A stretch of 64,000 nt of DNA, from contig JAMPXO010000012.1 in NCBI GenBank assembly GCA_023701125.1, positions 2,130 to 66,129 of the forward strand. The letters run 5' to 3'. This DNA is from Vicinamibacteria bacterium. GTDB taxonomy: Bacteria; Acidobacteriota; Vicinamibacteria; Fen-336. Of this stretch, positions 15,441-50,136 are shown piece by piece; within the stretch, counting starts at the first letter, position 1, and each line of letters starts with the position of its first letter. Below the pieces are notes generated by a model. The model saw only the letters and a program-made list of their open reading frames with translations, was not told the DNA's origin and made no database searches. Made by a program: the position numbers and the translations under genes.

Positions 15441-15459
15441 ATCCCTACAGACGTGGTGG

Positions 15460-15488: not shown

Positions 15489-15520
15489 GTCCTCCGTGGC
15501 CGGCTGCGAGCGGCCCGGGG

Positions 15521-15682: not shown

Positions 15683-19367
<3,685 letters not shown>

Positions 19368-34535: not shown

Positions 34536-34616
34536 CCCGGCGACCCCGCAGGCGCTCGATCCGATTCGGGGCGCATTACACTGCGGCGGGAGCGCCGCCT
34601 GACCACCCTGACCCCG

Positions 34617-37274
34617 TTGCGGATCGACCGACCCGAAGAACCCGGGACGGAGTCCGTCGCGGTCGAAGATCTCCCCGCGGCCCCTCAACCCACGCTGCCC
34701 CCCGGGACCCGGGTCGCCGGCCGCTACGTGCTCGACGTGGTGCTCGGACGGGGCGGCTTCGGGGTCGTCTACCTCGCCCGCGACGAGCGCGAGGAGCGTG
34801 AGGTCGCGCTCAAGATCCTCCGCGCCGACCGCCTGACCGGGCTGTCGCGGCGCCGCTTCGAGCGCGAGGCCGAGATCGCGCGCCGGATCGCGCATCCCCA
34901 CCTCGTCCGCGTCCTCGATTTCGGCCCGACCGAAGACACGGTCTACCTCACGATGGAGCGGGTCCACGGCGAGACGCTGCGTGACCGGCTCGCGCGCGGC
35001 GCGCTCGCGGCCGACGAGGCGATCCGCATCGCCTCCGAGGTCCTGCAGGCACTCGAGGCGCTCCACTCGCAGGGTGTCGTCCACCGCGACGTCAAGCCGA
35101 GCAACGTGCTGCTCGACGAGCACGGCCACGCCCGGCTCGGCGACCTCGGCCTCGCCCGCCGCTTCGAGCGCGACGAGAGCCGCGCCACCGAGTCCTCCGC
35201 CCTGGTCGGCACCGTCGAGTACCTCTCACCCGAACAGGCGCTCGGCCGCGACCTCGACGGCCGCAGCGACCTCTACTCGCTCGGCGTCGTGCTGTTCGAG
35301 ATGGTCACCGGGCACCTGCCCTACGAGAACCGCTCGACGCTGGGCACGGTGCTGGCCCACATCACACAGCCCGCCCCCGACGTCAGGACCTCCGCGCCGG
35401 ACACGCCCTCGTGGCTCGCAGGGGTGATCGCGCACCTGCTCGAGAAGGACCCACAAATGCGCTACGCGGGGGCTCGGCCGGTGCTGGCCGATCTCGAACG
35501 AAGGCAACCGCCGCCGCGAGCCGGGCGGCGCGCAGGGGCGACGTTCTCCGCGCATCGGGTGGGTGCGCTCCTGCTGGCGCTGGCGGCCCTGGGCGCGCTC
35601 GGCCTCGGCTGGCTCCGGTTCGGCCAGGAGCGGCGCTTCGTGCGCGTGCTCGACGACGGCAAAGGCGCCTGCTTCGGCGTCGACAGCGAGAGCCAGGTGT
35701 TGTGGACGAAGTCGGCGCTGTGCGGGGCGGCGGCGTTCGGGCCCAACTTCGTCCCGGTTCGAGTGCAGAAGGACCGGACGTTGCTGGCGGCCATCCAGGC
35801 CAGGCGCGAGGACGACGTCGTGGGCTTGCACCAGCTGACCCTGCTGGAGCCGGAGTCCGGGGACACCGTGCGAACAGTGGAGCTGCCGAACGCCGCCCAC
35901 AGCTTCCCCGGCTTCGCCTTCCGGTACGGAGCCTCCATTGCCGCCTTCGACCTCGACGGGAACGGGATCGACGAGGTGCTGGTCACCTTCGCCCACCGCC
36001 GGCTCTGGCCGAGCTACACCGTGATCTACGAGCCCGCGATCGACCGCTCGCGCGTGCTGATGGCGTCGTCGGTCGGGCAGAGCGAGCCACGCGGGACGGC
36101 TGACGTGGACGGCGACGGGCAGCCCGAGATTCTCTTCGCCGGCGCCGCCAACCGCCTGGGCTGGTATCACCACGTGTCCGCCGTGCGCAGCGGCGTGGGC
36201 GCGCGCCCCACCGACAGGGGTTGGACGCCCGACAGCGACCTCGGCGGGCTCCACCGCGGCCTCGGCGTGTGGTTCGCGCTGGTCCCGGCGGATACCAACA
36301 CGGCCCTGCCGCCACGCCTGTCGACGCTCGGCGAGCGCCGGGTGCTGGCCTGGCCGCGCGGCAACGGTGGCGATCTCCACCTCGACCTGGACGGTTTCGT
36401 CGTCGACGCCTCAGCCGCGACAGCCCCGTCTCCTCGCCGCGCCGAGGAGCGGGAGCTCGCCTACCGTCGGTTGCGCGAGGCGCGCGTGCTGGAGCGCGAC
36501 GGCCGCGTGCGCGAGGCGGCCGGCGCCGTGCAGGCTGCGGAGCGCGCCGCGGCGACCGCGGGCGATGTCCTGCTCGCGACCTGGGCGCGGCGGCGGCATG
36601 CGGCCCTGGCCGTGGCCGCGGGCGAGCCGGCCCGCGGCGAGCGCGAATTCGAACGGCTGATGACCGCAACCGGGCCGGGCGAGGACTCGCGCGTCGCGCT
36701 CGACGCGGCGCAGAGCTTCCACCTGGCGGGCGACCTCCAGCGCGCACTAGCCTGGTACCGGCGGGCGTTGCGCACACCGAACCCGGAACTGGCCCGCACC
36801 TGGGAGACGCTCGAGGGCCTCGTCTTCGCCCTCGGCGAGACCGGCCGATGGGACGAGGCGGCGCGCGCGATCGAGGCCCGTGAGCCGAGCCAGCAGCTCT
36901 CGCCGGCGATGGTGAAGTTCCTCGCGGGCTACCTGGACTGGCGCCGGGGACGCCCGCCGGCGACGCCGGCGAACACGCCCGAGGTCGACATCCAGACCTA
37001 CTGGCGCCTGGAGTTCCAGCTCGCCGCCGGAGCGGACGCGGCGGCGGTGCTGCGCGAGGTGGAGGTCGAGAAGCCGCTGGCGTCGGAGAGCGTGGCCCTG
37101 CTGATGTCAGTCGAGTCCGAGTGCCTGGCCCGCCTCGGCCGCCGGGAAGAAGCGCTGGCGAAAGCCCGAGATGCGTTCGAGCGCGTCGCGGCGAGCCGGC
37201 GCTCGAGCCTGTACGCCCGCGTCCACCTGCCGATCGTCGAGTCGAGGCTGCGCAAGCTGGAGGCGGGCGGCTGA
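34617..37274 (+). CDS. Ser/Thr protein kinase with TM segment, FG-GAP/VCBS-like repeats and C-terminal TPR region
   Basis: Hanks kinase motifs GRGGFGVV, ALK, HRDVKPSN, DLG and SPE. These are followed by FDLDGNGIDEVLV and DVDGDGQPEILF repeats. Confidence 0.9.
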   Translation: MRIDRPEEPGTESVAVEDLPAAPQPTLPPGTRVAGRYVLDVVLGRGGFGVVYLARDEREEREVALKILRADRLTGLSRRRFEREAEIARRIAHPHLVRVLDFGPTEDTVYLTMERVHGETLRDRLARGALAADEAIRIASEVLQALEALHSQGVVHRDVKPSNVLLDEHGHARLGDLGLARRFERDESRATESSALVGTVEYLSPEQALGRDLDGRSDLYSLGVVLFEMVTGHLPYENRSTLGTVLAHITQPAPDVRTSAPDTPSWLAGVIAHLLEKDPQMRYAGARPVLADLERRQPPPRAGRRAGATFSAHRVGALLLALAALGALGLGWLRFGQERRFVRVLDDGKGACFGVDSESQVLWTKSALCGAAAFGPNFVPVRVQKDRTLLAAIQARREDDVVGLHQLTLLEPESGDTVRTVELPNAAHSFPGFAFRYGASIAAFDLDGNGIDEVLVTFAHRRLWPSYTVIYEPAIDRSRVLMASSVGQSEPRGTADVDGDGQPEILFAGAANRLGWYHHVSAVRSGVGARPTDRGWTPDSDLGGLHRGLGVWFALVPADTNTALPPRLSTLGERRVLAWPRGNGGDLHLDLDGFVVDASAATAPSPRRAEERELAYRRLREARVLERDGRVREAAGAVQAAERAAATAGDVLLATWARRRHAALAVAAGEPARGEREFERLMTATGPGEDSRVALDAAQSFHLAGDLQRALAWYRRALRTPNPELARTWETLEGLVFALGETGRWDEAARAIEAREPSQQLSPAMVKFLAGYLDWRRGRPPATPANTPEVDIQTYWRLEFQLAAGADAAAVLREVEVEKPLASESVALLMSVESECLARLGRREEALAKARDAFERVAASRRSSLYARVHLPIVESRLRKLEAGG

Positions 37275-37332
37275 CGAGCCAGGGGTCGCCCTGTGCAGCT
37301 CTTCGCGCCCCGTGTGTGGTCGGGCGCCCGGG

Positions 37333-38133
37333 TCAGGGCCCCACGGCCTGGAGCACGGCCTGCTTCAGCGCCCCGTTGACCTTGACGCCCTTCGCCTCGG
37401 CCTGCAGCAGCACGGCGCGGGCGAGCAGCGGCTGGCCGGCGTCGAGGTAGAGGCTCGCCAGATTGTTGATGGCCTCGGCGTGGTCCGGCTTGGCCGCAAT
37501 CGCCCTGCGATAGCGCTCCGCGGCCTCCTCGCGCTGGCCGAGCCGGAGCAGGATGTTGCCGCCGAAAAAATCATAGTCGGGGGGCAGGCCGGACGCCCCC
37601 ACGCCCGGCAACTCGCCGAGTTCGCGTTGGAGGTCGCCCCGGTCCCGCTCGGCGGTGTCGATCCGTTCCTGGAGTTCCTGTCGCTGTCCGTCGCTCGTGG
37701 CCTGGGCCTGGGCACTGCGCATCTGGTCGGTGCGCACGCGCTCGCTGTCGAGGTACTTCTGGAGTTCCTCCTTGCGCGCGCGCTCGGCGTCACCCTGGAG
37801 CGCTGCGGCGGCCAGCAGGGCCTGCTCGGCGCGCGCCATGTGCTGGGCGGCCTGGGCGTAGTTCTTCTGGTGGTAGGCGACCTTGGCCCGCAGGAAATGT
37901 GCGTCGGGGTAGTCCGGCCACAACCGCAGGGCCGCGTCCAGCGCCTCCAGCGTGGGCTCGATCTCGCGTCGCTCGAAGGCCTCGAGAGCCTTTCCGTGTT
38001 GGAGGCGGGCCGCCCGCACGGCTTGCACCGTAAGGGTGTCCGCCTGCACCGGCTCGCCCGGTCCGAAGGCGAGCACGCTGAGCAGCACCGCTCCGCAGAC
38101 CAGCCCCAGAAACCAGCGACCACTTGTGGCCAT
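37333..38133 (-). CDS. Secreted TPR/coiled-coil protein (paralogue B)
   Basis: At least about 60% aa identity by eye to 33729-34535, with long identical blocks. ATG 38133 precedes the signal peptide. Confidence 0.8.
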   Translation of the reverse strand: MATSGRWFLGLVCGAVLLSVLAFGPGEPVQADTLTVQAVRAARLQHGKALEAFERREIEPTLEALDAALRLWPDYPDAHFLRAKVAYHQKNYAQAAQHMARAEQALLAAAALQGDAERARKEELQKYLDSERVRTDQMRSAQAQATSDGQRQELQERIDTAERDRGDLQRELGELPGVGASGLPPDYDFFGGNILLRLGQREEAAERYRRAIAAKPDHAEAINNLASLYLDAGQPLLARAVLLQAEAKGVKVNGALKQAVLQAVGP

Positions 38134-38389
38134 CAGGGACTCTCCCCCAAACCGCCGACTGCGACGGCATCCAGCCCGGCGAGTCAGTGCTGCAGGACGC
38201 AAGCGGATCAACATGGGGACACCTCTACTCGAAACCTGCGAGAGCGTGGAGCAGACTCCGTGCCACCCGGCCGGCCTCGTGCCATCAACGAGTTGCAGTC
38301 ATCGCTGCGGCGATCCGTCGCCTGTGGGAGACGGCGTGTGTCCTCGGGTCGAGCAAGGCTGGCGCGCACGGGGGGCCTCAAGCTGTCGC

Positions 38390-38620
38390 GGCAGGCATCC
38401 GCGAGCGATAGCGGTGGGCGTAGCTCCGCGTCAGCTCGGCGCCGGAGAAGAAGATCAGCGACGAGTAGTGGACCGAGAGAGGAGCAGGACGACGGACCCC
38501 GCGCGCCATACGCGGAGGCGACGCCGGTGGTGCCGAGGAAGGCCCCGATCGCGAACTTGTCGGCCGTGAACCGGACGGCCCGCGGATGTAGGCGCCGACG
38601 ATCGGCTCCAGGTTCATCCA
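38390..38620 (-). pseudogene. Frameshifted remnant of a YihY/BrkB (RNase BN-like) membrane protein C-terminus
   Basis: Two minus frames together read ...EPIVGAYIRGP / AVRFTADKFAIGAFLGTTGVASAYGARG / LSVHYSSLIFFSGAELTRSYAH. The last block resembles the conserved YihY C-terminal W.Y.S..I.L.GAE motif. No intact ORF is present. Confidence 0.35.
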
Positions 38621-38711
38621 TCACGCGGGCCAGGCGGATGTGATGCGAGCGAGGACCACGGAGAACAGGGCGACCCGCCGAGGAATGTGGCCCGAGGCGG
38701 GAGAGGGCGCC

Positions 38712-38746
38712 GCAGAAACGACAAGGGGGCCGCTTTCGCGACCCCT
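38712..38746 (-). terminator. Intrinsic terminator after tRNA-fMet
   Basis: Minus-strand RNA folds as GGGGUCGC-GAAA-GCGGCCCC (8 bp including one G.U, GAAA tetraloop), followed by UUGUCGUUUCUG. Confidence 0.55.
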
Positions 38747-38777
38747 CTATCCGACTGGGTTCTGCTGATGATGGCGT

Positions 38778-38854
<77 letters not shown>

Positions 38855-38872
38855 ACAGATGACTCCTGAAAT

Positions 38873-41197
38873 TTAACCGGGCGGGAGCTCGCTGTCAACC
38901 ACCGTGGGCGGATCGTCCGGCAGCGCGTAGAGGCCGCCCTCGTCGTACACCAGCTTCCAGGCGGGCAGCAGGTCCAGCTTGCCGGCCAGGATCAGCGACG
39001 CGAGCGGGCCGCGCACATAGCGGTCGACCGTGCGCTGGGCCTCGTGCACGCCCTGCTCCAGGCTCCACGCCTGCCCGCAGACGAAGTCGAACGCCGCCGC
39101 CTCCAGCCGCAAGGCCGTCTCGTACTTGACCTGGAGCTCGAGCTCGATCGCATCGATCAGCCGGCGCACGACCAGGGCGGCGTCTTCGGGGCCGAGCGGA
39201 GCGAACTCGACCCGCTCGTCGATCCGGTCGAGGAGTTCCCTGGGCGCTGCCCCCGCAGCGGCCCCCAGGTGGGAGGTCATCACGATCACCGCGTGGCGCG
39301 CGTCGGCCGTGCGGCCGGCGCCGTCGGTCAGCCGGCCCTCGGCGAACAACGGCAGGCACGCCTCGAGCACCCGTGGGTGCGCCTTCTCCACCTCGTCGAG
39401 GAGCACGAGCGACCACGGGTTGCGGCGCAGGCCACCGGTGAGCTGGCCTTCGTCGGCCGGGCCGGCGTCACCGGGCGGCGCGCCGATCAGGCGCGACACC
39501 GAGTGCTCTTCCTGGTACTCCGCCATGTCGAGGCGCAACAGCCGCTCGCCGTCGTCGAACACGAACTGCGAGAGCAGCTTGGCCATCTCCGTCTTGCCGG
39601 TGCCCGAGGGGCCGCAGAAGTGCATCACGGCCAGCGGGCCGTTCTCGCGGCGCTCGCCCGAGAAGGCCAGCCGCACGCGGCGGGCGACCTGGTCGATGGC
39701 GGCCTTCTGGCCGACGAGATGGGAGGCGAGGAACGCCTCCAGCTCCAGCAACCGCGAGTGGTCGCCTTCGCCCAGCGCCAGCAGCACGCGGTCGACGGCC
39801 AGCCCGCGCTTCTGGGCCAGGACCTCGGCCACCTGGTGCGCGGTGACCTTGACCGTGCCCGCGGGCGCCGCTGCGTCGGTGCCGAGGCCGGGCTGTGGCA
39901 CCCGCGCGTGCGCGCAGGCCTTGTCGGCCACGTCGACGGCCTTGTCGGGCCAGCGGTGCTCGGGGTCGAAGCGGGCCGTCAGGTCGACCGCGGCGGCCAG
40001 CGCGGCCTCGTCGATCTCGACGCCGTGGTTCTCCTGCCACCGGCTGCGCCAGCCGCGCAGGATGGCGAGCGTCTCCTCGCGGGTGGGCTCGCCCACCGCC
40101 ACCTTCTCGAAACAGCGAGCGAGAGCGGAATCGGCCTCCACCTGTCCGGCGTACTCGTCGGCCGTCGTGGCGCCGATGCAGGAGATCTCGCCGCGGGCGA
40201 GGGCCGGCGTCAGCAGGTTGGCCGCGTCCGGGCTGCCGCGCCCCGTGGCCCCCGCGGCGACGACCGTGTGCAACTCGTCGAAGAACAGGATCACATCGGG
40301 GTTGGCACGGGCTTCCGCCAGCAGCGCCAGCAGCCGCTCCTCGAACTCGCCGCGGTCGGCGCCAGCCAGCAGGGCGCCCATCGGCACCTCCACGATGCGC
40401 CGGCCCTCGAGTGCCGCGTCCTTGCCGGACGCGATGCGGAGCGCGAGGCCCTCGACGACGGCCGTCTTGCCGACGCCGGCTTCGCCGACCAGCACCGGGT
40501 TGCGGCTGCCGGCCCGGGACAGGGCCTCGATCACCGCCAGCATCTCGGCGCGGCGGCCGAACACGGGGGGCAACTCGCCGCGACGCGCCAGCGCCGTGAG
40601 GTCGCGGCCGAAGCGGTCCAGCATCGGCGTCGCCCCGCGCACCGCGGCGGCGACCGCGACCGCGGCCCCGGCCTGCGCCACCGGCGGCGCGGCGAAGAAG
40701 CCCGCGACCGCCTGTAGCGCGCCGGCGTGCAGCGTGGGCACCTGGGCGCCGAGATCGACGAACAGCTTGAACGTCAGCGGGTCGGCCCCCTCGGCCATCG
40801 CGGCCACGAGGTGCAGGCCCGAGAGCCGCGGCGCCTCGGCCGCGAGCGCCTCCGCCGCCTGGAACAGCGCCTTGGTGACGAGGCTGCGGCTCATCGCGCC
40901 GCTCGGCTGCCTGGCGAGCGCACCCTGGCCGACGCGGTCACGCGCGAGCCGCCGCATCCTGGTGGCGTCGAGGGCGGCGGCCCGCATCACCTGGCCGAGC
41001 AGCGCCTCTTCGCGCGCAACCTCGGCGAGGGTCTGGCTGTCGAGGCCCAACTCGACCGGCTGCAGCTTGACCACCTTCTCGAGGCTCAACAGGCCCATCA
41101 GCAGGTGGGCGGGCTCGATCTTCTCGTGGCGGGAAGCGGCGGCCTCGCCGGCGGCGATCCGCCAGGCCAGCTCCGCGCCCGGGGTCAGCTTCATCAA
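38873..41197 (-). CDS. Clp/Hsp100-family double-ring AAA+ ATPase with non-canonical pore loops
   Basis: Clp_N repeats; D1 Walker A GEAGVGKT and Walker B ILFFDELH; D2 Walker A GPSGTGKT and Walker [10 protein letters not shown]. The pore loops read GADRGEFEE (canonical AKYRGEFEE) and GAPPGDAGP (canonical GAPPGYVGY). There is no M-domain-length insert and no obvious IGF/L loop. Confidence 0.9.
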
Positions 41198-41315
41198 GAT
41201 CTAGCTCCTCAAGGGCTCCCGGCAGGCACCTTTCGTCTGCCAGAGCTTGCCATGCCGCGGGCACACCGCAAGCCCCCCTTCGAATCCAGGTGAGCGTCTC
41301 GGCCTCGACGCCACG

Positions 41316-42035
41316 TCAGGCACCCTCGGACTCGACGCCCGGGGCGACCGGGGCGAAGGCCGTGGTCTGCGCGGTGAGCAGCTCCGCGTCGAGCGACGGC
41401 GTCGCCGCCGGGCCGCGCGGCGGCAGCGTGACTTCGCGGTCCCCCTCTTCGAGCTCCACCCTGTACACGGCGGCGCCGAAGGCCAGCCGGTCGCCATCCG
41501 CGAGGCGCGCGTGGGAAACCAGCGCACCGTTGACGCGGGTGCCGTTGGCCGAGCCGAGGTCCTCGACGGTCACCGCGTCGAAGCCGCGGACCACGCGGGC
41601 GTGGCGCTTGGAGGCCGTCGGGTCGGCGAGCACGACCTGGGCGTCGACGGCCCGGCCGCACACGTTCTCGCCGGGCACGAGGGCGACGCGGGTCCCGCCC
41701 GACTCGACGCGCAGCCAGGCGCTGCACACGCCGCGGCGGCGCTCGGGGCCCTGCTCCTCGACCAGCAGCACCAGCCGCGTCGAGCCGAGCGCGAGCACGT
41801 CGAGGTGCCGCACCGGGCTGAGGGCGGTGGGCCGTCCGTTCACCCGCAAGCCGCCGCCCAGGTCGTGGGCGACGATCCGCCCGCCGTCGCGGACGAGGCG
41901 CAGGTGGCGAGCCTCCAGCCCGGGCAGCGACAACTCGAGGTCGGCGCCCGGCCCGGCGCCGACCACGCAATCGTCCAACTCGGGCACCTCGGCCCGCGCG
42001 AGCCCGCCGTCTGCGCGGCGGCCGACCAGTTCCAT
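41316..42035 (-). CDS. Protein with two FHA domains
   Basis: The second domain has the canonical GR...SKRHARV...DLGSANGTRVNG pattern. The first is degenerate (GAG...ARHLRL...DLGGGLRVNG). Start is ATG 42035 inside a longer shadow ORF. Confidence 0.85.
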   Translation of the reverse strand: MELVGRRADGGLARAEVPELDDCVVGAGPGADLELSLPGLEARHLRLVRDGGRIVAHDLGGGLRVNGRPTALSPVRHLDVLALGSTRLVLLVEEQGPERRRGVCSAWLRVESGGTRVALVPGENVCGRAVDAQVVLADPTASKRHARVVRGFDAVTVEDLGSANGTRVNGALVSHARLADGDRLAFGAAVYRVELEEGDREVTLPPRGPAATPSLDAELLTAQTTAFAPVAPGVESEGA

Positions 42036-42051
42036 TCTCACGGCCCGACCC

Positions 42052-43113
42052 TCAGAGGACGCCGCGGGGATGATACCGATGGCACGCCGCGCAGTCGCGT
42101 ACCGCCGGCTCCCTGCGGTGGCAGTCGAGGCAGCCGGCCGGGTCCGGTCGCGGCAGCGGCAGGGCTGTCGCGGCGGCCACGTCCCCGTGGCAACTCGCGC
42201 AGGCCTGCGGGTGCCGCCCGTGGTCGAAACGGGCGACGAGACTGCGGCCCGCGCCTGCTGCGAAGCGGCCGCGCTCGGCGCCGGGGTGACAGCGCAGGCA
42301 GGGCGCCGCCAGCGCCCGCGCGGTGGTGACGGCCTCGCGCGCGACGGCCCGCTCGAGGTTGAACAGCAACCACGGATCGCGGTGACCGATCTGCGCGAAG
42401 ACCGTGCGGTCGTCCGCTTCCACCTCGGTCGCAATCGCCATCTCCAGGCCCGCCGCCTCCAGTTCCTGCGGCAGTACGACCGCGGCCCGCGGCACGGAGA
42501 CTGCGCCGAGCGGACCCTCGGGCGCATGACAACCCGCGCAGGCGTCGAAGCGCGGGCGGGCGAGGCGGGCGCGCGGACCGTGGCAGGCCTCGCAGGCCGC
42601 CTCCCCCGTCCGCCCCTCGCGACGGAGTTCGTCGAGGTGCCGCGCGTGGGAGAAGGCGAGGTCGAGCGAGCGCGCGGCCTGCGCGCGCGGGAGCGGCAGC
42701 GGATGGACGTCGAGCGAATCGAAGTGGCAGGTCGCGCAACGGTCGTCGGCGACCGGCGGCGACGGCGACCCGCGATGTTCGCCGTGGCAGGTCGCGCACC
42801 CGGCCGGAGCCTGCGCCGCGTGCGCGGTCGCGGCGAAGCGCTGGCCGTCGCCCGCGGCGTGGCAGCGCGCGCAGCCCGCGTCGCCGCGCCCGCGCGCGTG
42901 GCAATCCGCGCAACGGGTCGCCGCCGTCACATGGGGAGCGGCGAGCGGCCCGGGACTGAGCGGGCTGGGGCCGCCGGCGAGGTGCAGCAGCGCAGCCGCG
43001 GCTGCCGTCACCAGCGCCGCACCGCCCACTCGCCACAAGCCGCGGCCGGCGCCTGCAGCCACCAGCGGTCGCCGCGAGCGCGCACCGCTGCCCCACACGG
43101 GCGTGCGCGCCAT
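42052..43113 (-). CDS. Decahaem c-type cytochrome (c3/c7-like), N-terminally anchored
   Basis: Ten CxxCH motifs: CADCH, CARCH, CATCH x2, CEACH, CAGCH, CLRCH, CASCH, CLDCH, CAACH. F.H..H blocks and an N-terminal hydrophobic segment are present. The start overlaps the upstream stop (TGATG). Confidence 0.85.
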   Translation of the reverse strand: MARTPVWGSGARSRRPLVAAGAGRGLWRVGGAALVTAAAAALLHLAGGPSPLSPGPLAAPHVTAATRCADCHARGRGDAGCARCHAAGDGQRFAATAHAAQAPAGCATCHGEHRGSPSPPVADDRCATCHFDSLDVHPLPLPRAQAARSLDLAFSHARHLDELRREGRTGEAACEACHGPRARLARPRFDACAGCHAPEGPLGAVSVPRAAVVLPQELEAAGLEMAIATEVEADDRTVFAQIGHRDPWLLFNLERAVAREAVTTARALAAPCLRCHPGAERGRFAAGAGRSLVARFDHGRHPQACASCHGDVAAATALPLPRPDPAGCLDCHRREPAVRDCAACHRYHPRGVL

Positions 43114-43826
43114 CAGTAGATCCAGAAGCTCGAGCCGTGCACGGCCGCGAGCCCGATCAGGGCGCCGGAGACGAGCGCGTGGGCCAGCCGGGCAAGGCCC
43201 AGCGCCCCCTCGAGCCCGTGCTGCGTGTCGAGCTCCAGCTTCTCGCGGAGCAGGGTGCGCAGGTCGTCGAGCGTTTCCCGCTCGAGGTCCGTGACCGCAG
43301 GCCACGCGGCTTCGATCGCGGCCACGGGCGCGGCCACTTCGGCGGGTGCGGGCGGGCGCAGGCGGACGCGTAGCGCCGCGAGCTGCGGCGCGACGCCGGT
43401 GTCGAAGGCCTGGCGCGCGGCGGGCGGAAAGCCGGCGGCCAGCGTCCTCGCCTCCTCGGCGAGTTGTGCGACCCGGGCGGGGACGAGGGCCGCGGGCTCG
43501 CTGACCCGCAGGCGCTCGGTGAGCAGGCGCGGGATCTGCTTCACCAGGAGTTCGATCAACGCGGCCGAGGCCAGCGACAGCACGAGCAGCGAGAGCAGCA
43601 CGAGGCCCGTGCTCCCCCGCGGCCAGCGGGCGCCGACGTGGATGCAGGCGAGCACGAGCGCGAGCCCGCCGATCGCCCGGTGCGCGCGCAGCCAGGCGGA
43701 GGCCCGGAAGCCCGGTCGCAGCCGGTCCGGCAGGCGCACCAGCAGGCGATGGGCGGGAAACAGGGCGGCCGCGACGAACGCGAGCAGCGTCGCGAGGCCC
43801 ACCCACCCGGTCGCGCCGTGCGGCAT
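43113..43826 (-). CDS. His-rich polytopic membrane protein (possible b-type haem anchor)
   Basis: 3-4 TM helices carry conserved-looking His residues (FPAH, RAHRAIG, ACIHVG, AAVHG). TGATG overlaps occur at both ends. I recognise no family. Confidence 0.6.
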   Translation of the reverse strand: MPHGATGWVGLATLLAFVAAALFPAHRLLVRLPDRLRPGFRASAWLRAHRAIGGLALVLACIHVGARWPRGSTGLVLLSLLVLSLASAALIELLVKQIPRLLTERLRVSEPAALVPARVAQLAEEARTLAAGFPPAARQAFDTGVAPQLAALRVRLRPPAPAEVAAPVAAIEAAWPAVTDLERETLDDLRTLLREKLELDTQHGLEGALGLARLAHALVSGALIGLAAVHGSSFWIY

Positions 43827-45346
43827 CAGAAGCGGCTCCCGAACGCACGCGCCGCGCCGGCGCGGTCGCGGGCCGAGAGCCGGATCGACGACTCGTGCGG
43901 ACAGGCCTGCACGCAGGCGGGCCCCTCGCGCCGGCCCGCACACAAGTCACACTTGACCGCGCGCTCCTGGGCGCTGCCGTCGCTGCGGGCGCCGGCCTCG
44001 ACCATCAGCACGTTGCCCCACGGGCAGCCCTGCGCACAGTTGCCGCAGCCGATGCACGACGCCGCCGCGATCGTCACCTCGAGCGCGCCCCAGTCGCGGG
44101 TGATGGCGCCGGTCGGGCAGTCGAGCATGCACACCGGGTCGGTGCACTGGTGGCAGGCCGTGGGCACCAGCCAGCGGCCGAGGCGCTTGCCCTGGCGCAC
44201 GAAGCGCGGCACCCCGTCGTGGGAGTCGGCGCAGGCCGTCACGCAGGCGTCGCAGCGGGTGCAGGTCGCGAGGTCGATCAGCAGCGCGCTCTCGCCGTGG
44301 ACGAGCCCGGCCTCGCGCAGCGCGTCCATGGCCTGGGCCAGGCCGGGATCGGAGAGCGCTTCGCCGCGCTGCTCGAGGCGGGCGACGCCCGCGTCCCACA
44401 GCGCCTGTTCGACCTGGGGGTCGAGCGCGATCGCATCCAGCACGTCCGCGCGCGCCAGCCGCACCAGCTCCACGTGATCGAGCGCGTGCAGCTCGAACGG
44501 CCACGGCGTGGCGAGCAGCAGGCCGGCCTCGCCTGCGACGTCGCCGGCGCGCAGGTAGGTGACGACGCGCGGCCCGTCGGGCGCCGCGACGCCCACCTGG
44601 ACCAGTCCCCCGCGGACCAGCAGCAGCTCGCGCGCGGGGTCGCCTTCGGCCGCGATGCGCTGGCCGGGCTCGAACGAGCAGAGCTCGGCGCGCGCCGCCA
44701 GCGCCGCGACCCGCTCGTCGGGCAGGCCCGCGAACAGCGGTACCCCGCGCAGATGGCGGCCGAGGGCGCGCTCGCGGTAGCGGGCGTCGACGAAGGCGCG
44801 GAACGACGGGGCCGCGGCCAACAGCATGCGCAGCGCGGGCAGCTTGAGCAGCAGCACGCGCGTCGCCGACCGCGCGCGCACCGACGCGGAGACCGGGTAG
44901 CGCGAGAGCGCGGCCAGTTCGCCGAACACCTCGCCGGGCCCGAGCGCCTTTCGCGACGGGGCTTCGACGGGAGGCGCCCCGCGCCCGACCCAGGTCCGCC
45001 CGCCGGCATCGACTGCGGCACTGGCGTCGCCGTGACGGACCACGACGGGTCGCGCCTCCGCCACGGAGTAAGCCCCGAGCACGACCTCGACCTCGCCCTC
45101 CATGACGTAGAAGGCCGTGTCGGAGTACTCGCCCTCGCGGAGGATCTCCTCTCCGGCCGGGAACCGTGCGGTGCGCAGCCGCGGCAGCACCTTCTCCAGC
45201 AGCCGCTGCCGGGCCCGCTCGGGCACGGCGCTGAACAGCGGCAGCCCGGCCAGCTCCTCGAGCCGGGCGGGCGCCTGCAACTGCAGCCGCCGCTCGTGGC
45301 GGCGGCGCAGCGCGTCGCGATCGGGCGCCGGCGCCTCGGGCTGCAT
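43826..45346 (-). CDS. Fusion of two cyclic-nucleotide-binding (CAP-like) domains to a 4x[4Fe-4S] DmsB/NrfC/PsrB-type ferredoxin domain
   Basis: Two cNMP blocks (GEVFGELAAL, GDVAGEAGLL). Four Cys clusters follow: CTRCDACVTAC; CHQCTDPVCMLDCP; CIGCGNCAQGCP; CDLC...CVQACP. No Tat or Sec signal is visible. Confidence 0.85.
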   Translation of the reverse strand: MQPEAPAPDRDALRRRHERRLQLQAPARLEELAGLPLFSAVPERARQRLLEKVLPRLRTARFPAGEEILREGEYSDTAFYVMEGEVEVVLGAYSVAEARPVVVRHGDASAAVDAGGRTWVGRGAPPVEAPSRKALGPGEVFGELAALSRYPVSASVRARSATRVLLLKLPALRMLLAAAPSFRAFVDARYRERALGRHLRGVPLFAGLPDERVAALAARAELCSFEPGQRIAAEGDPARELLLVRGGLVQVGVAAPDGPRVVTYLRAGDVAGEAGLLLATPWPFELHALDHVELVRLARADVLDAIALDPQVEQALWDAGVARLEQRGEALSDPGLAQAMDALREAGLVHGESALLIDLATCTRCDACVTACADSHDGVPRFVRQGKRLGRWLVPTACHQCTDPVCMLDCPTGAITRDWGALEVTIAAASCIGCGNCAQGCPWGNVLMVEAGARSDGSAQERAVKCDLCAGRREGPACVQACPHESSIRLSARDRAGAARAFGSRF

Positions 45347-45363
45347 CGGGGGGAGTACGGCCG

Positions 45364-45395
45364 CGCCCCGCGCTGCGGTTTCCGCGCGCGGGGCG
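45364..45395 (-). terminator. GC-rich hairpin after ispH (14 bp with one bulge, 3-nt loop)
   Basis: CGCCCCGCGC(t)GCGG-TTT-CCGCGCGCGGGGCG, read directly. There is no U-tail, so function is uncertain. Confidence 0.3.
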
Positions 45396-45400
45396 GCGGC

Positions 45401-46606
45401 CTACAACGCCACCAGCTCCGCAGCCGACTGGCCGCGCGCCGCGAGCACGCGCTCGACGACCGCGGCGACGACGGAGTTGGGGGTCGAGGCGCCAGCCGTG
45501 AGACCGACCCGCAGCGGGCCCGCGGGCAGCCAGCCCGACGTGCTCCCGATGCTGCCGTCGACCACCGCGCGGTGCGAGATGGCCTCGGCTTCGACGCAGG
45601 CCGCGGAGTCGATGTGGTAGGTCGGCACCTTGTCGGCGCACATCTTCGCCAGCGCCTGGGTGTTGCTGGAGTTGTAGCCGCCGATCACCACCATCAGGTC
45701 GACCGCCCGCTCGGCCAGCAACTGGAGGACGGCGTCCTGCCGGTCCTGGGTCGCGGAACAGATCGTGTCGAACGCGCGGAAGCGGCTGGCCAGCGCCGCC
45801 TCGCCGTGGCGGTCCTTCATCGCCTGCCGCAGCCGCTCCTGGACCTCGAGGCTCTCGCTCATCAGCATCGTGGTCTGGTTGGCGAGGCCGATCCGCTGCA
45901 GGTCGCGGTCCGGCTCGAAGCCCGGCCCCGCCGCGTGCCCCAGCTTCTCCAGCAGCGTCGCGGCCGGCAACTCGCCGCGGATGAAGGCGCAGACGAGGTC
46001 GGTCTCGGGCAGGTTGCGCACGCACAGGTACTGGCCGCCGGCGAACTCCAGCGCCTGCGAGGCCGTTGCGCGCGTCTCCTCGTGGTAGTGCTTGCCGTGG
46101 ATCACCACGGTGAAGCCGTCCTGGGCGTAGCGCTTGACGTTCTTCCAGACGTTCAGCACCGAGCCGCAGGTGGTGTCGATCAGCACGCAGCCCTTGTCGC
46201 GCAGGTGGGACAGCTCGCCCTGGGTGACGCCGAAGGCGGGCAGCAGCACGACGTCCTCGACCGTCACCGGCGCGTAGCGTTCCGCCGGCGTCGGCGCCGG
46301 GTCGAGCTGGACGTAGCCCATCGCCGCCAGTCGGGCGTTGACGTCGGGGTTGTGGATGATCTCGCCGGACAGGAACAGCCGCTTGCCGGGGAACTTCTGG
46401 CGGGTCTCGTAGGCGTACTCGACCGCCCGGTCCACGCCGTAGCAGAAGCCGAACTCGCGGGCCAGGCGCAGGGTCAGCTCTCCCGCCCGGGCCGCGTAAC
46501 CCAGCTCGCGCAGGCGGTCGACCACCCCGCTGCCGTACTCCGCCTCGAGGATCGGGGCGACCTGGGCTTTCAGGCCGAGGCCCTTCTGGAAATAGGTCTG
46601 GCTCAC
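45401..46606 (-). CDS. ispH: 4-Hydroxy-3-methylbut-2-enyl diphosphate reductase (long form)
   Basis: GFCYGVDRAV, the three Fe-S Cys regions and SSNT are present. It has an N-terminal extension like the roughly 400-aa cyanobacterial-type enzymes. GTG start. Confidence 0.93.
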   Translation of the reverse strand: MSQTYFQKGLGLKAQVAPILEAEYGSGVVDRLRELGYAARAGELTLRLAREFGFCYGVDRAVEYAYETRQKFPGKRLFLSGEIIHNPDVNARLAAMGYVQLDPAPTPAERYAPVTVEDVVLLPAFGVTQGELSHLRDKGCVLIDTTCGSVLNVWKNVKRYAQDGFTVVIHGKHYHEETRATASQALEFAGGQYLCVRNLPETDLVCAFIRGELPAATLLEKLGHAAGPGFEPDRDLQRIGLANQTTMLMSESLEVQERLRQAMKDRHGEAALASRFRAFDTICSATQDRQDAVLQLLAERAVDLMVVIGGYNSSNTQALAKMCADKVPTYHIDSAACVEAEAISHRAVVDGSIGSTSGWLPAGPLRVGLTAGASTPNSVVAAVVERVLAARGQSAAELVAL

Positions 46607-46653
46607 GGGGACTAGAATACCGTGCGCAGCCTGCTAGACTTCAAGGCTCTCGA

Positions 46654-47673
46654 ATGCAGTTCCAGAACCTCGCGATCGAATCGATGGCGTACGAGCTTCC
46701 GCCGGTCTCCGTGTCTTCGCGCGAGATCGAGGAGCGGCTGCGCCACGTCATGGGCAATCTCAAGGTGCCGACCCGCACCCTCGAGCTGCTGACCGGCATC
46801 GTCGAGCGCCGCTTCTGGAACGAGGGCACCCAGGTCCACGAGGCCGCCGCGCGGGTCGCCCGGCGCGCGATCGCCGCCGCCGGCATCGCCGCCGACGCGG
46901 TCGGCGTGCTGATCAACACCTCGGTCTCCAAGGACTACCTCGAGCCGTCGATGGCCAGCCTGGTCCACGGCGACGTCGGCCTGTCCGAGCGCTGCATGAA
47001 CTTCGACGTCTCCAACGCCTGCCTCGGCTTCCTGAACGGGATCGAGGTGGCGGGCCGGATGATCGAGTCCGGCGCCGCCGACTACGCGCTGCTGGTCGAC
47101 GGCGAGAGCTCGCGCCAGGTCGTCGAGTCGACGATCGACCGGCTGTCCGCCCCGGGCGCCACGGCCAAGGACTTCTGGGACAACTTCGCGACCCTGACGC
47201 TCGGCTCGGCTGCCGTGGCGATGGTGCTGTGCCGGGCCGACCGCTCGCGCACCACCCACCGCGTCAACGGCAGCGTGACGCTGGCGGACACCGCGCAGAG
47301 CCGGCTCTGCACGGGCACCGCCGAGCGCATGGTGACCGACTCCACGCGGCTGCTGAAGGCCGGCGTCTCGCTCGCCCAGAAGACGTGGCAGGTCGCGGCC
47401 GAACAACTGGTCTCCTGGTCGCCCGCGGGCATCCGCCGCTTCGTCTGCCACCAGGTCGGCGAGTCGCACATGCGCGCGATGTGCGACGCGCTGCGGATCG
47501 ACTTCAACAAGTGTTTCCTCAGCTACCCCACCCACGGCAACGTGGGCCCGGCCGCGGTGCCGCTGACGCTGGCGCTGGCCGCCGAGGCGGGCGAGCTGAA
47601 GTCGGGCGACCACGTCGCGCTGATGGGGATCGGCTCCGGACTCAACGTCACGATGATGAGCGTGACCTGGTGA
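46654..47673 (+). CDS. oleA: FabH-like thiolase, OleA (head-to-head acyl condensation)
   Basis: Thiolase fold with Cys (SNACLGF), His (CHQVG) and Asn (HGNVGPA). The call rests on the conserved oleABCD context. Confidence 0.8.
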   Translation: MQFQNLAIESMAYELPPVSVSSREIEERLRHVMGNLKVPTRTLELLTGIVERRFWNEGTQVHEAAARVARRAIAAAGIAADAVGVLINTSVSKDYLEPSMASLVHGDVGLSERCMNFDVSNACLGFLNGIEVAGRMIESGAADYALLVDGESSRQVVESTIDRLSAPGATAKDFWDNFATLTLGSAAVAMVLCRADRSRTTHRVNGSVTLADTAQSRLCTGTAERMVTDSTRLLKAGVSLAQKTWQVAAEQLVSWSPAGIRRFVCHQVGESHMRAMCDALRIDFNKCFLSYPTHGNVGPAAVPLTLALAAEAGELKSGDHVALMGIGSGLNVTMMSVTW

Positions 47674-47677
47674 GCTG

Positions 47678-48544
47678 GTGAGCTGGCGCTCACTCTTCCC
47701 CTTCGCCTCCCACACCCTCGACACCCCCGGCGGCCGGCTTCGTTACCTGGACGAGGGCCCGCGCGACGCGCCGGTGCTGCTGTGCGTGCACGGGAATCCC
47801 ACCTGGTCGTTCCTGTGGCGGGACGTCGTGTCGGAGTTCCGCGCCTCACACCGAGTGGTGGCCCCCGACCACCTCGGCTGCGGCCTCTCGGACAAGCCGC
47901 AGAACTGGGGCTACCGGCTCGCCGATCACATCGACAATCTCGGCCGCCTGATCGAGAACCTCGACCTGCAACGGATCACGCTGCTCGTCCACGACTGGGG
48001 CGGGCCGATCGGGCTGGGCGCCGCACTGGCCGAGCCCGCCCGCGTCGAGCGCCTCGTGATCACCAACACCGGCGCCTTCCCCGCCCCGGGCATGCCGGCC
48101 CGGATCGCGGCCTGCCGGCTGCCACTGCTCGGCCCGCTCGCGGTCCGCGGCTTCAACGCCTTCTCGTGGGCGGCCACGTTCATGACCACGGTGCGCGGCC
48201 TCCCGCCCGACGTCGCGGAGGGCTACCTGTACCCGTACCGCTCGTGGGCCGACCGGGTCGCGGTGCAGCGCTTCGTCGAGGACATCCCGCTCGACCCGGG
48301 TCACCCGTCGTGGCCGACGCTGGTCGGCATCGCGGAGGGCCTGCAGCGCCTCGCCGATCGGCCCGGGCTGATCCTGTGGGGCGAGCAGGACTGGTGCTTC
48401 ACCCCGTGGTTCCGCCGCGAGTTCGAGCGGCGCCTGCCGCGGCTCGCGTCGCACCCTTTCGCCGACGCCGGCCACCTGGTGATCGAGGACGCTCGCGGTC
48501 GCGTGCTCGGGCTGCTGCACGAGCTGCTCGACACCACGGCGTGA
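47678..48544 (+). CDS. oleB: Alpha/beta hydrolase, haloalkane-dehalogenase-like OleB (beta-lactone decarboxylase)
   Basis: HGNPTWSFLWR and the nucleophile elbow VHDWGGPIG. GTG start. Confidence 0.8.
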   Translation: MSWRSLFPFASHTLDTPGGRLRYLDEGPRDAPVLLCVHGNPTWSFLWRDVVSEFRASHRVVAPDHLGCGLSDKPQNWGYRLADHIDNLGRLIENLDLQRITLLVHDWGGPIGLGAALAEPARVERLVITNTGAFPAPGMPARIAACRLPLLGPLAVRGFNAFSWAATFMTTVRGLPPDVAEGYLYPYRSWADRVAVQRFVEDIPLDPGHPSWPTLVGIAEGLQRLADRPGLILWGEQDWCFTPWFRREFERRLPRLASHPFADAGHLVIEDARGRVLGLLHELLDTTA

Positions 48545-50136
48545 GCCCGGCCCCCGCCAACGTCGCGCGCCACTTGCGCGCTGCCGCCGCGCGCACCCCG
48601 ACCGCCTGCGCGATCGCCCAGCAGACCCGCGACGGCTACCGCCGCGTTTCGTTCGCCGAGCTCGAGGAGCGCAGCAACGCGGTCGCCCGCGGCCTGCTCG
48701 CCGCGGGCATCGCCCCCGGCGAACTTGCCCTCTGCATGGTGCGGGCCGGCATCGACCTGATCACGCTGACCTACGCGCTGTTCAAGGCCGGCGTCGTGCC
48801 GGTGCTGATCGACCCCGGCATGGGCCTGCGCGGCTTCCTCGCCTGCGTGCGGCGCACGCGGCCGACCGCGCTGGTGGGCCTGCCGCTGGCTCACGCCGTC
48901 AGCCTCGTGGCCGCGGGCGCGTTCGACACCGTACGCACGCGGGTGACCGTCGGCCGCCGCTACGGCTGGAGCGGGCCGACGCTGCACGACCTCGAGCGGC
49001 TCGGGGCTCACGGGGCCGCGCCGCTCCGCGCGCCGACGGCGGGCGCGCCGGCCGCGATCCTGTTCACCTCCGGCAGCACCGGCCCCGCCAAGGGCGTCGT
49101 CTACAGCCACGACCACTTCGACGCCCAGGTCCGGCTGCTCGGCGCGACCTACGCCTTCCGCGAAGGCGACGTGGACCTCGCCGCGTTCCCGCTGTTCTCG
49201 CTGTTCGACAACGCGTTCGGCATGACCAGCGTGATCCCGGACCTCGACCCCTCGCGGCCCGGAAGCTGCGATCCCGCCCGCGTCGCCGCGGCCATCAACG
49301 AGTCCGCGTGCACGACCGCGTTCGGCTCGCCCGCGATCTGGCGGCGGGTCGCGCCGTGGTGCGCCAGGAGCGGCGTGCGGCTGCCGACGCTGAAGCGGGT
49401 GCTGATCGCCGGCGCGTCCGTGCCGCCTGCGCTGATCGCGGCACTGCGCGCGGTGATCGCCGACGGCGGCGACGTGGAGACGCCGTACGGCGCGACCGAG
49501 TCGCTGCCGGTCGCCAACGTGCGCGGCAGCGAGATCCTCGGCGAGACCGCGGCGTTGACCCGCGCGGGCGCCGGCACCTGCGTCGGACGCGTGGTGGACG
49601 GCATGGAAGCGCGGGTGATCCGCATCGACGACGGCCCGATCGCCGCCTGGAACGAGGCCGACGTGCTGCCGCGCGGCGAGGTCGGCGAGATCGCCGTGCG
49701 CGGCCCGGTCGTGACCTGCGCATACCACAACCTGCCCGAGCCGACGGCCGCCGCGAAGATCCCCGACGGCGAGCAGGTCTGGCATCGGATGGGCGACCTC
49801 GGCTACTTCGACGAGGGCGAGCGCCTCTGGTTCTGCGGCCGCAAGGCCGAGCGCGTGGAGACGGCCGCCGGCCCGTGGTTCACGGACAAGGTCGAGGGCC
49901 TGGCCGCTGCCGACGCGCGAGTCGGGCGCTGCGCTTTGGTCGGGGTCGGCCCGCGCGGGGCGCAGCGCCCGGTGCTGGTGGTCGAAGGTCGCCGCGACGA
50001 CGCGCTCGCGGCGGACCTGCGGGCGCGGACGGGGGTCGAGGCCGTGCTGTTCCGCGACAAGCTGCCCGTCGACGTGCGTCACAACGCCAAGATCCATCGC
50101 CTGCAACTCGGCCCGTGGGCGGAGGCGCAACTGTGA
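48541..50136 (+). CDS. oleC: AMP-dependent synthetase OleC (beta-lactone synthetase)
   Basis: AMP-binding motif FTSGSTGPAKGV and TGD-like core. GTGA overlap with oleB. Confidence 0.8.
   Translation: MSPAPANVARHLRAAAARTPTACAIAQQTRDGYRRVSFAELEERSNAVARGLLAAGIAPGELALCMVRAGIDLITLTYALFKAGVVPVLIDPGMGLRGFLACVRRTRPTALVGLPLAHAVSLVAAGAFDTVRTRVTVGRRYGWSGPTLHDLERLGAHGAAPLRAPTAGAPAAILFTSGSTGPAKGVVYSHDHFDAQVRLLGATYAFREGDVDLAAFPLFSLFDNAFGMTSVIPDLDPSRPGSCDPARVAAAINESACTTAFGSPAIWRRVAPWCARSGVRLPTLKRVLIAGASVPPALIAALRAVIADGGDVETPYGATESLPVANVRGSEILGETAALTRAGAGTCVGRVVDGMEARVIRIDDGPIAAWNEADVLPRGEVGEIAVRGPVVTCAYHNLPEPTAAAKIPDGEQVWHRMGDLGYFDEGERLWFCGRKAERVETAAGPWFTDKVEGLAAADARVGRCALVGVGPRGAQRPVLVVEGRRDDALAADLRARTGVEAVLFRDKLPVDVRHNAKIHRLQLGPWAEAQL

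Follow-up and report, generated by a model that had tools for sequence, protein, structure and literature searches.

Which of five neighbouring genes in a Vicinamibacteria contig belong together, and what would the unit that they form do? The genes lie at positions 38873-45346 of a 64-kb stretch of DNA (hereafter the window; ~72% G+C), the nearest relatives of which are metagenome-assembled genomes (MAGs) of Vicinamibacteria (Acidobacteriota). In gene order they encode an iron-sulphur (Fe-S) protein with cyclic-nucleotide-binding (CNB) domains, a membrane protein, a decahaem cytochrome c, a protein with two FHA domains and a Clp-like ATPase. The initial annotation took them for a five-gene operon encoding a transmembrane (TM) electron conduit that could be gated by cyclic AMP (cAMP) or cyclic GMP (cGMP) and is coupled to a phospho-Thr reader and an AAA+ machine. 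The analysis presented here shows that the conserved unit consists of four genes, those of the Fe-S protein, the membrane protein, the decahaem cytochrome and the FHA protein. On balance, we think it probable that this PtdE-F-G-type inner-membrane module and its conserved FHA partner form a cytoplasm-to-periplasm electron conduit with a regulatory CNB module.

The core of this unit already has a name. The initial annotation knew of no described system of this composition, but the trio of CNB/Fe-S, TM and decahaem proteins has been named PtdE, PtdF and PtdG as part of a ptdABCDEFG cluster, the function of which was called 'completely unknown' (bioRxiv 10.1101/2023.11.21.568154). As described there, the cluster encodes three cytochromes, with five haems in PtdA, four in the periplasmic PtdD and ten in the periplasmic PtdG; the porin PtdB; the FAD/NAD(P) oxidoreductase PtdC; PtdE, which binds cyclic nucleotides and has 4Fe-4S clusters; and PtdF, a TM protein that resembles ferric reductases. 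When the literature was searched for a cyclic-nucleotide (cNMP)/Fe-S, TM and decahaem composition, no account other than this preprint turned up. The window holds a reduced variant of the recently named system.

All five open reading frames (ORFs) are on the minus strand, at the coordinates first reported for them. The PtdE-like Fe-S protein gene (43826-45346, minus strand, 506 amino acids (aa)) is followed by the PtdF-like membrane protein gene (43113-43826, minus strand, 237 aa) and the PtdG-like decahaem cytochrome c gene (42052-43113, minus strand, 353 aa), and each of these two junctions is a one-base TGATG stop/start overlap. The double-FHA protein gene (41316-42035, minus strand, 239 aa) comes after a gap of 16 nt (42036-42051). 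The Clp-like gene (38873-41194 with an ATG start, or 41197 with a TTG start; minus strand, 773 aa) comes after a further 118 nt. Co-orientation, overlaps and gaps are as originally described, and the Pfam and NCBIfam profile searches on which domain calls are based bore out the domains.

Conservation of the neighbourhood was assessed in 80 genome loci with relatives of the Fe-S protein, together with loci from an exact-protein look-up. The controls were 55 loci with cNMP-domain matches of other kinds, 839 kb in total. In profile searches, 23 of 27 core loci have a homologue of the membrane protein immediately behind the Fe-S gene, compared with 0/55 controls. An ORF with exactly ten CxxCH motifs follows in every module-keeping locus with enough flank (15/15), and four further decahaem ORFs end at a contig edge after six motifs. 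Core loci were found in Vicinamibacteria, Thermoanaerobaculia, Salinivenus (Bacteroidota/Rhodothermota), Phycisphaerae, Pirellulaceae and Verrucomicrobiales. The order Fe-S protein, membrane protein, decahaem cytochrome and FHA protein is shared by Acidobacteriota, Salinivenus and Planctomycetota. The great majority of close Fe-S protein homologues are of metagenomic origin. One locus, L083:1-21698, has tetrahaem and Fe-S genes with no membrane protein or decahaem gene; it lies among DDE transposases and an integrase and has probably been disrupted or mobilised.

FHA genes are found on the same strand, 1.8-4.6 kb downstream of the Fe-S gene, in 14 of the 18 loci with at least 3.5 kb of flank, versus 0/55 controls. 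The FHA gene is a true partner of the core, and this tight linkage appears to be new. The FHA protein of the window matches Pfam FHA with 78.7 bits over two stretches. By direct reading, the second domain has the canonical GR, SKRH and NG motifs and the first has GA and EARH, thus without the Arg and the Ser. The FHA proteins of relatives have three FHA domains. In L015:11371-13656 the next gene in line encodes a Pyr_redox-FHA-2Fe-2S flavoprotein (Pfam; PtdC-like), and the matching ORF of L023 (~14773-17241) has its FHA domain at the same relative position. In a Pirellulaceae locus (L024:14685-15653), an FHA-GGDEF protein is encoded directly after the decahaem gene.

The membrane protein has four TM helices (five in most relatives), with a cytoplasmic helical insert of ~100 aa between TM3 and TM4, and is without the N-terminal extra helix of its relatives. 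H49 and H63 in TM2 and H216 and H230 in TM4 form two H-x13-H pairs. None of the four His varies among 15 orthologues from three phyla or among 8 close homologues. A wider set of 37 diverse family representatives shows no change at H49, H216 or H230 and at least 90% conservation of H63. Paired His of this kind typify proteins in which two bis-His haems b lie one above the other in the membrane, such as cytochrome b, FdnI and NOX. The membrane protein is probably a dihaem b cytochrome, with H49/H63 and H216/H230 as the predicted ligands. The initial annotation had called it a His-rich membrane anchor of haem-b type; the haem-b character is supported by the four conserved His, whereas 'His-rich' does not fit a protein with 7 His in 237 residues, of which 4 are relevant. 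The family comprises 1042 representative clusters (E ≤ 1e-3; ~1,000 clusters at 50% identity). DUF4405 is weakly matched by 8 of the 37 relatives (best E = 2.6e-5). A permissive scan of relatives gave sub-threshold signals of DUF4405, Ferric_reduct (one orthologue, E = 0.26) and Ni_hydr_CYTB/cytochrome b561, exactly at the His helices. A PDB sequence search with the membrane protein returned no match even at E ≤ 10.

Natural fusions join the Fe-S and membrane proteins. A complete Fe-S protein is N-terminal to the membrane protein in P0101 (771 aa) and P0250 (828 aa), and in P0291 and P0286 Fer4 domains stand ahead of the membrane protein in one polypeptide. These fusions argue for a physical complex of the two proteins, and because of them the Fe-S domain is expected on the cytoplasmic side, at the N-terminus of the membrane protein. 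Together with positive-inside loops, they lead us to infer a topology with H49 and H216 near the cytoplasm and H63 and H230 near the periplasm.

The Fe-S protein matches Pfam cNMP_binding with 96.5 bits in two domains, followed by Fer4_11. Its four-cluster ferredoxin domain (43877..44284, minus strand) has four Cys motifs, beginning at C362 (CxxCxxCxxxC), C398 (CxxCx4CxxxCP), C431 (CxxCxxCxxxCP) and C466 (CxxCx8CxxxCP), and all 16 Cys are invariant across 90 homologues. No TM segment, hydrophobic N-terminus, Tat signal or Sec signal was found in the protein, and it is placed in the cytoplasm because the CNB domains are at the N-terminus and there is no signal peptide. The Pfam matches, Cys motifs and N-terminus thus uphold a protein with two CNB domains, a four-cluster ferredoxin and no export signal, as first described. 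The four Cys motifs of the 'DmsB/NrfC-type' ferredoxin likewise stand, but the HycB/HydN type is closer: the best NCBIfam and PDB sequence matches of the Fe-S part are AegA, HydN, HycB3 of the hydrogen-dependent CO2 reductase (7qv7_A, E = 1e-15) and HycB of formate hydrogenlyase (7z0s_B). HydN, HycB3 and HycB are cytoplasmic, and the FdnH, NrfC and DmsB types rank after HycB3 and HycB. The protein misses every NCBIfam equivalog cut-off. Its AlphaFold2 (AF2) model has a predicted local distance difference test (pLDDT) score of 76.8; confidence is high for the CNB domains and drops in the Fe-S part, which is modelled without its cofactors.

The cytochrome has an N-terminal signal anchor (aa 29-47, one TM segment), after which comes a periplasmic haem domain. 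Its ten CxxCH motifs bear out the periplasmic 10-haem cytochrome of the initial annotation, and its 21 His would suffice to give each haem two His ligands. Pfam matches are Paired_CXXCH_1, Cytochrome_C7 and Cytochrom_CIII. Orthologues of 499-780 aa likewise have exactly 10 CxxCH motifs, and the window protein, with 353 aa, is the shortest seen. Two Vicinamibacteria-type loci also have extra ORFs with 10 CxxCH motifs and more than 1100 aa downstream of the FHA gene (L010:18089-21484 and L019:16608-20414), each preceded by a signal-peptide protein of ~660-680 aa. These extra ORFs may be outer-membrane or extracellular extensions of the chain.

In the conduit reading, a cytoplasmic donor would reduce the four [4Fe-4S] clusters of the HycB/HydN-like domain, and the Fe-S protein would dock on the ~100-residue cytoplasmic helical domain of the 4-TM protein. 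Electrons would then cross the membrane via two bis-His haems b, the inner one at H49/H216 and the outer one at H63/H230, and would pass to the membrane-anchored periplasmic decahaem cytochrome c. Such a conduit would have 16 redox centres (four clusters, two b haems and ten c haems) and would give low-potential cytoplasmic carriers a direct connection to the periplasm in which no quinone step is obvious. Where fuller versions exist, tetra- or octahaem cytochromes, pentahaem cytochromes and an outer-membrane beta-barrel, none of which is in the window, would extend the chain outward. The Pyr_redox, FHA and 2Fe-2S flavoprotein, also not in the window, would be the likely NAD(P)H-side input in these fuller versions. 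The tandem CNB domains would act as a regulatory or dimerisation module. The FHA protein would, most simply, be an adaptor that depends on phospho-Thr to bring in or control partners of the complex. The basis of this reading is gene order, domains, conserved residues, synteny and fusions; cofactor binding, topology, direction of flow and the role of the FHA protein are predictions from sequence. The transmembrane conduit first proposed is supported by the gene order in three phyla, the fusions, the conserved His and the ten haem motifs in every complete orthologue gene.

Several observations weigh against this reading. The membrane protein has no match in Pfam or NCBIfam at E ≤ 0.01, and Foldseek searches with its AF2 model (pLDDT 77) returned generic helical bundles only (E > 0.2, TM-score ~0.3). 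In L012:10001-14800 several FHA genes come directly after the Fe-S/CNB gene with no membrane protein or decahaem gene, so the Fe-S/FHA pair may work in another context too. A search of the Fe-S protein for a Thr as FHA target found two Thr conserved across phyla, both inside Fe-S motifs. Membership in the Ptd system, as a predicted reduced variant with the E-F-G core and FHA, is assigned by architecture and gene order. In the 64-kb window, tblastn with the L015 versions as queries gave no match to PtdA-D, and there is no ORF with at least two CxxCH motifs besides the decahaem gene; PtdA-C could be located elsewhere in the genome. Finally, sequence does not fix the direction of electron flow, a point that also counts for the inward flow considered below.

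If the conduit reading is true, the module would be a new inner-membrane route, on which cytoplasmic Fe-S carriers donate to a new dihaem protein and this protein to a decahaem cytochrome. Such a route would matter for extracellular electron transfer, for the redox cycling of metals and humics and for redox balance in Acidobacteriota, Planctomycetota and marine Proteobacteria. The regular presence of an FHA partner, together with the flavoprotein and GGDEF fusions, suggests that Ser/Thr phosphorylation signalling acts directly on the conduit; to our knowledge, there is no precedent for this. A more specific version is tentatively put forward as a possibility. PtdE-F-G and the FHA protein would form a widespread, regulated 'electron valve' from cytoplasmic ferredoxin or an NAD(P)H flavoprotein to periplasmic multihaem wires past the quinone pool, controlled by a ligand-sensing CNB layer (ancestrally by cNMP, retuned to another ligand in Acidobacteriota) and by phospho-Thr-dependent FHA docking. 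If this were true, FHA docking would plug a flavoprotein reductase (some genomes), a diguanylate cyclase (others) or, as here, a stand-alone multi-FHA adaptor into the complex, and Ser/Thr phosphorylation would directly switch a respiratory-type electron conduit. The system offers several experimental handles, including the four His ligands, a natural R-to-V switch in the CNB cassette for ligand specificity, and cultured ptd hosts, among which Sulfidibacter corallicola, Tistlia consotensis and Roseibium aggregatum are listed (bioRxiv 10.1101/2023.11.21.568154).

The rival explanation that survives best, although we consider it unlikely, is a redox sensor. The redox state of the periplasmic decahaem cytochrome would be relayed via the b haems and clusters to the CNB domains, with output by FHA recruitment, for example of a diguanylate cyclase. 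Consistent with this, the domains are of signalling type (FHA, and tandem CNB as in the regulatory subunit of protein kinase A (PKA-R)), and an FHA-GGDEF gene stands directly after the decahaem gene in L024. The L012 arrangement, with FHA genes after the Fe-S/CNB gene in a locus without membrane protein or cytochrome, and the lack of obvious donor or acceptor genes near the window version also fit a sensor. However, sixteen redox centres far exceed the needs of a sensor, and the full clusters hold a porin, more multihaem cytochromes and a 2Fe-2S flavoprotein, which are typical of electron-transport chains. The ptdAB transcripts, at 500-900 fragments per kilobase per million (FPKM), also speak against a sensor (bioRxiv 10.1101/2023.11.21.568154).

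Inward flow through the same proteins is judged improbable. In this case a periplasmic or extracellular donor, such as Fe(II), reduced humics or a nitrogen intermediate, would deliver electrons to the decahaem cytochrome and from there to a cytoplasmic acceptor. Multihaem and porin systems such as PioAB and MtoAB do work in uptake mode. In addition, ptd clusters have been noted in nitrite oxidisers (Nitrospirales) and other aerobes, with links to N-cycle enzymes (bioRxiv 10.1101/2023.11.21.568154). Uphill transfer to low-potential HycB-type clusters, however, needs energy, and no coupling subunit is evident. The Pyr_redox and 2Fe-2S flavoprotein fits an NAD(P)H-oxidising input more simply.

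The original model, a five-gene operon with a cAMP/cGMP-gated conduit coupled via FHA to the Clp-like AAA+ protein and a Hanks kinase, is now very improbable. In its favour, the genes are co-oriented and tightly packed, and a promoter/terminator scan, in which transcription signals are pattern matches only, found no terminator-like site within the five-gene string. The CNB fold is also real. The top Foldseek matches of the Fe-S protein model are the tandem CNB-A/B domains of PKA regulatory subunits (E ~1e-17 to 1e-18), and the matches include the cAMP-independent PKA-R of trypanosomes (6hyi, 6flo, 6h4g). The cassette Gly-Glu is retained, as FGE in CNB1 and AGE in CNB2. The Gly-Glu of the cassette contacts the ribose, and the cassette Arg (R82 in CRP, R209 in RI-alpha, R348 in MloK1) binds the cyclic phosphate.

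It is this Arg that is missing. CNB domain 1 (44813..45262, minus strand, aa ~29-178) has the cassette FGELAALSRYPVSASVRA, with Val for Arg, and CNB domain 2 (44411..44752, minus strand, aa ~199-312) has AGEAGLLLATPWPFELHA, with Trp for Arg and Pro for Ser/Thr. In HMMER alignments, the CNB1 cassette PVSAS has Val at the Arg position of PRSAT (MloK1) and PRAAT (PKA RI-alpha). In the alignment to PKA-R 5j3u, the CNB2 cassette PWPFE has Trp at this position. Every acidobacterial and Salinivenus orthologue examined has V, H, I or Q where the CNB1 Arg would be, and the WPF motif of CNB2 is conserved within the clade. Planctomycetota and Verrucomicrobiota orthologues retain P-R-[ST]-A-T in CNB1, which the five-gene model may count in its favour, and cNMP control may be ancestral; it is unlikely in the acidobacterial lineage. 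Because the cyclic-phosphate-binding Arg is lost, the CNB domains here are probably unresponsive to cAMP and cGMP, and they may bind another small ligand. The initial annotation had itself named the ligand-binding residues as the point on which its cAMP/cGMP gating turned, and with Val in CNB1, Trp in CNB2 and a loss that extends across the acidobacterial clade, the gating is not sustained. CNB1 also contains an insertion (44969-45061, aa 96-126) that is disordered in the model (pLDDT < 50); in the family this insertion has a conserved RGGAH...GRG motif, of which the window protein keeps just GRG.

The fifth gene of the proposed operon fares no better. It does encode an atypical Clp ATPase, as first annotated, with a Clp_N-like N-terminus, two AAA+ modules and intact Walker motifs (GEAGVGKT and FFDELH in D1, GPSGTGKT and LLDEVE in D2). 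The protein scores far under all Clp equivalog cut-offs of NCBIfam (score/cut-off: ClpB 517/1232, ClpA 461/993, ClpV1 451/885). Alignment with ClpB 1qvr and ten family members shows no M domain, a deletion of the D1 pore-loop Tyr (KYRG) and GDAG in place of GYVG in D2. A deletion of ~28 residues takes out the loop that bears the GF tripeptide in homologues, and this tripeptide is the ClpP-docking motif of ClpA, ClpC and ClpX. In P0132, the orthologue of L081 type, the losses concern the Walker A Lys and the Walker B motif of D1 and the pore loop and Walker B Glu of D2. The paralogue thus appears to be decaying or functionally changed, in different ways, in both genomes that carry it. The gene is syntenic only in the closest relative, L081 (82% identity), which shares the neighbourhood of the window from ispH to tRNA-Met and retains Clp beside FHA, and it is absent from the 25 other core loci. 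The Clp-like gene is a lineage-specific neighbour outside the conserved module, and the proposed unit of five genes is reduced to four. Of the coupling to an FHA reader and an AAA+ machine, the FHA part therefore remains, with its recurrent linkage, and the Clp part does not. In L084:2899-10373 a 68%-identical Clp homologue with normal motifs and pore loops has a 4-nt overlap with the end of a gene for a 1701-aa Pkinase-TPR protein. This could also be cited for the five-gene model, and because of this overlap the Clp clade seems to be tied to Ser/Thr kinases rather than to the cytochrome module.

The Hanks kinase of the model (34617-37274, plus strand) is real (Pkinase, E = 1e-54), but its link to the module is not supported. 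It lies on the other strand, behind the tRNA-Met gene, and this tRNA gene and a TPR gene intervene between it and Clp. Kinase genes are found near 3 of 25 core loci and near 12 of 55 controls, which is no enrichment. The kinase is flanked by inverted repeats of ~0.8 kb (33743-34540 and 37328-38119, 79-90% identical), each arm of which encodes a paralogous TPR protein; L081 has one TPR gene and no kinase. The kinase and TPR copy look like a lineage-specific insertion or duplication, a further point against the model. The Clp-like ATPase and the Hanks kinase are local neighbours. A type VI secretion system (T6SS) remnant (TagH/Fha, ClpV, PpkA) was also considered and rejected, as the NCBIfam matches are far below cut-off, Pfam searches found no T6SS structural genes in the L081 neighbourhood, and Clp and the kinase are not conserved with FHA. 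Chance adjacency without a functional link, for which only the general density of redox and signalling genes in Acidobacteriota speaks, can be dismissed and is refuted for the first four genes by the order that recurs across phyla, the fusions and the 0/55 controls.

The gene string ends at a tRNA-Met (CAT) gene (38778-38854, minus strand; Rfam tRNA, 65 bits; ARAGORN), which starts 18 nt past the Clp stop codon and is also kept after Clp in L081. The sole sigma-70-like promoter match of the region (TTGACA-17-TAAATT, 38898-38870) lies inside the end of the Clp gene, just before tRNA-Met, and the sole terminator-like hairpin (38745-38726) lies just 3' of it. No RNA element other than the tRNA was found by Rfam in 38000-47000. 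The FHA-Clp spacer of 118 nt is unremarkable in structure (z = -0.37) and carries a GAGGAG ribosome-binding site. At the other end, ispH is separated from the Fe-S gene by 54 nt, in which a GC-rich hairpin (45355-45404, minus strand; -44.6 kcal/mol, z = -5.0) was predicted. This hairpin overlaps the ispH stop codon and ends ~10 nt ahead of the start codon of the Fe-S gene; a U-tract is missing, as is a Shine-Dalgarno sequence after it. Its equivalent in L081 is weaker (z = -1.7). The hairpin may be a terminator of ispH transcription or part of a 5' leader. Divergent from ispH, a gene string at 46654-51143 (plus strand), also kept in L081, encodes an ACP-synthase-III-like protein, an alpha/beta hydrolase, an AMP-binding enzyme and an NAD-dependent epimerase/3-beta-HSD, and looks like a lipid or polyketide-type modification operon. 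In L012, where FHA genes come directly after the Fe-S/CNB gene, a kinase gene is found just upstream, on the opposite strand.

How does the module compare with known systems? The membrane protein resembles dihaem b carriers (FdnI/Ni_hydr_CYTB, NOX/ferric reductase and DUF4405) in having two TM helices with two His each, 13 apart, an arrangement in which a haem could sit close to either face of the membrane. As in NOX and FRE proteins, where an FAD/NADPH domain does so, a cytoplasmic redox module would feed the inner haem. Unlike these carriers, the window protein is below curated thresholds, has no PDB fold match, and consists of 4 TM helices (5 in relatives), with TM3 and TM4 separated by a helical insert of 100 residues. 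It is paired with a polyferredoxin instead of a flavin domain or periplasmic enzyme.

In the transmembrane redox complexes Hmc and Tmc of sulfate reducers, as well as with the inner-membrane cytochromes CbcL, ImcH and CymA of metal reducers, a b-type or multihaem subunit in the membrane is coupled to multihaem cytochromes of the periplasm, and Hmc and Tmc also have a cytoplasmic Fe-S subunit. The module in the window differs from all of these in having no NrfD-like protein, CCG-domain protein or NapC/NirT fold. Moreover, its Fe-S subunit bears CNB domains, and it has no recognisable quinone-binding subunit. The Fe-S part is like HycB, HydN and HycB3 in its four Cys motifs and lack of an export signal; it differs from them in being fused to two CNB domains and in going with a membrane cytochrome, not with a hydrogenase or formate dehydrogenase.

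The CNB part shares its tandem fold and a cassette without the canonical Arg with the cAMP-independent, nucleoside-binding PKA-R of trypanosomes (the title of entry 6h4g has T318R within its set of engineered mutations). Here, in contrast, there is no kinase partner, and the cassettes are PVSAS and PWPFE. The fifth protein resembles ClpC, ClpA, ClpB and ClpV in its Clp_N-like N-terminus, two AAA+ modules and intact Walker A and B motifs, and differs from them in the absence of an M domain, of the pore-loop Tyr of D1 and D2 and of the GF loop.

The closest known system is Ptd, in which the composition and order of PtdE, PtdF and PtdG are the same as those of the Fe-S, membrane and decahaem genes of the window. 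The related loci L015 and L023 carry genes for 5-haem, beta-barrel (signal peptide, C-terminal ...KF), 8-haem, Fe-S, membrane, 10-haem, FHA and FAD proteins. At least 13 related loci have a 3- or 4-haem gene (7- or 8-haem in L013, L015 and L023) upstream of the Fe-S gene, and in most Vicinamibacteria and Thermoanaerobaculia loci a 3- or 4-haem gene is its immediate upstream neighbour. Unlike these fuller versions, the window, as L081, holds only the E-F-G core and FHA. The published hosts (Table S7) are Alpha- and Gammaproteobacteria, Nitrospinota/Nitrospirales, Planctomycetota, Verrucomicrobiales, Gemmatimonadales and two Acidobacteriota, namely Sulfidibacter corallicola and MAG LB_AC_1; the Ptd sources are marine or saline, and named accessions include QTD51415-QTD51417 (Sulfidibacter corallicola) and REK03313-15 (bioRxiv 10.1101/2023.11.21.568154).

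The window system also departs from the published description in several respects. The preprint counts two PtdE clusters, whereas the window protein has four Cys motifs, and the label 'ferric-reductase-like' for PtdF is not reproduced by Pfam here. The window version has the shortest decahaem cytochrome, a membrane protein without the N-terminal extra helix and CNB cassettes that have lost the Arg. The FHA gene, unnamed in the preprint, is part of the unit here. The accessions listed for the two Acidobacteriota leave one gene (QTD51418 and REK03312, respectively) unassigned between PtdG and PtdC (bioRxiv 10.1101/2023.11.21.568154), and we infer that the skipped gene sits where the FHA gene lies in L015 and L023. 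As far as can be told, the features that are new here are the four conserved His ligands, the Fe-S/membrane fusions, a count of four clusters instead of two, a loss of the cassette Arg that is specific to the lineage, an FHA linkage that spans phyla and comes with fusions, and the degenerate Clp paralogue.

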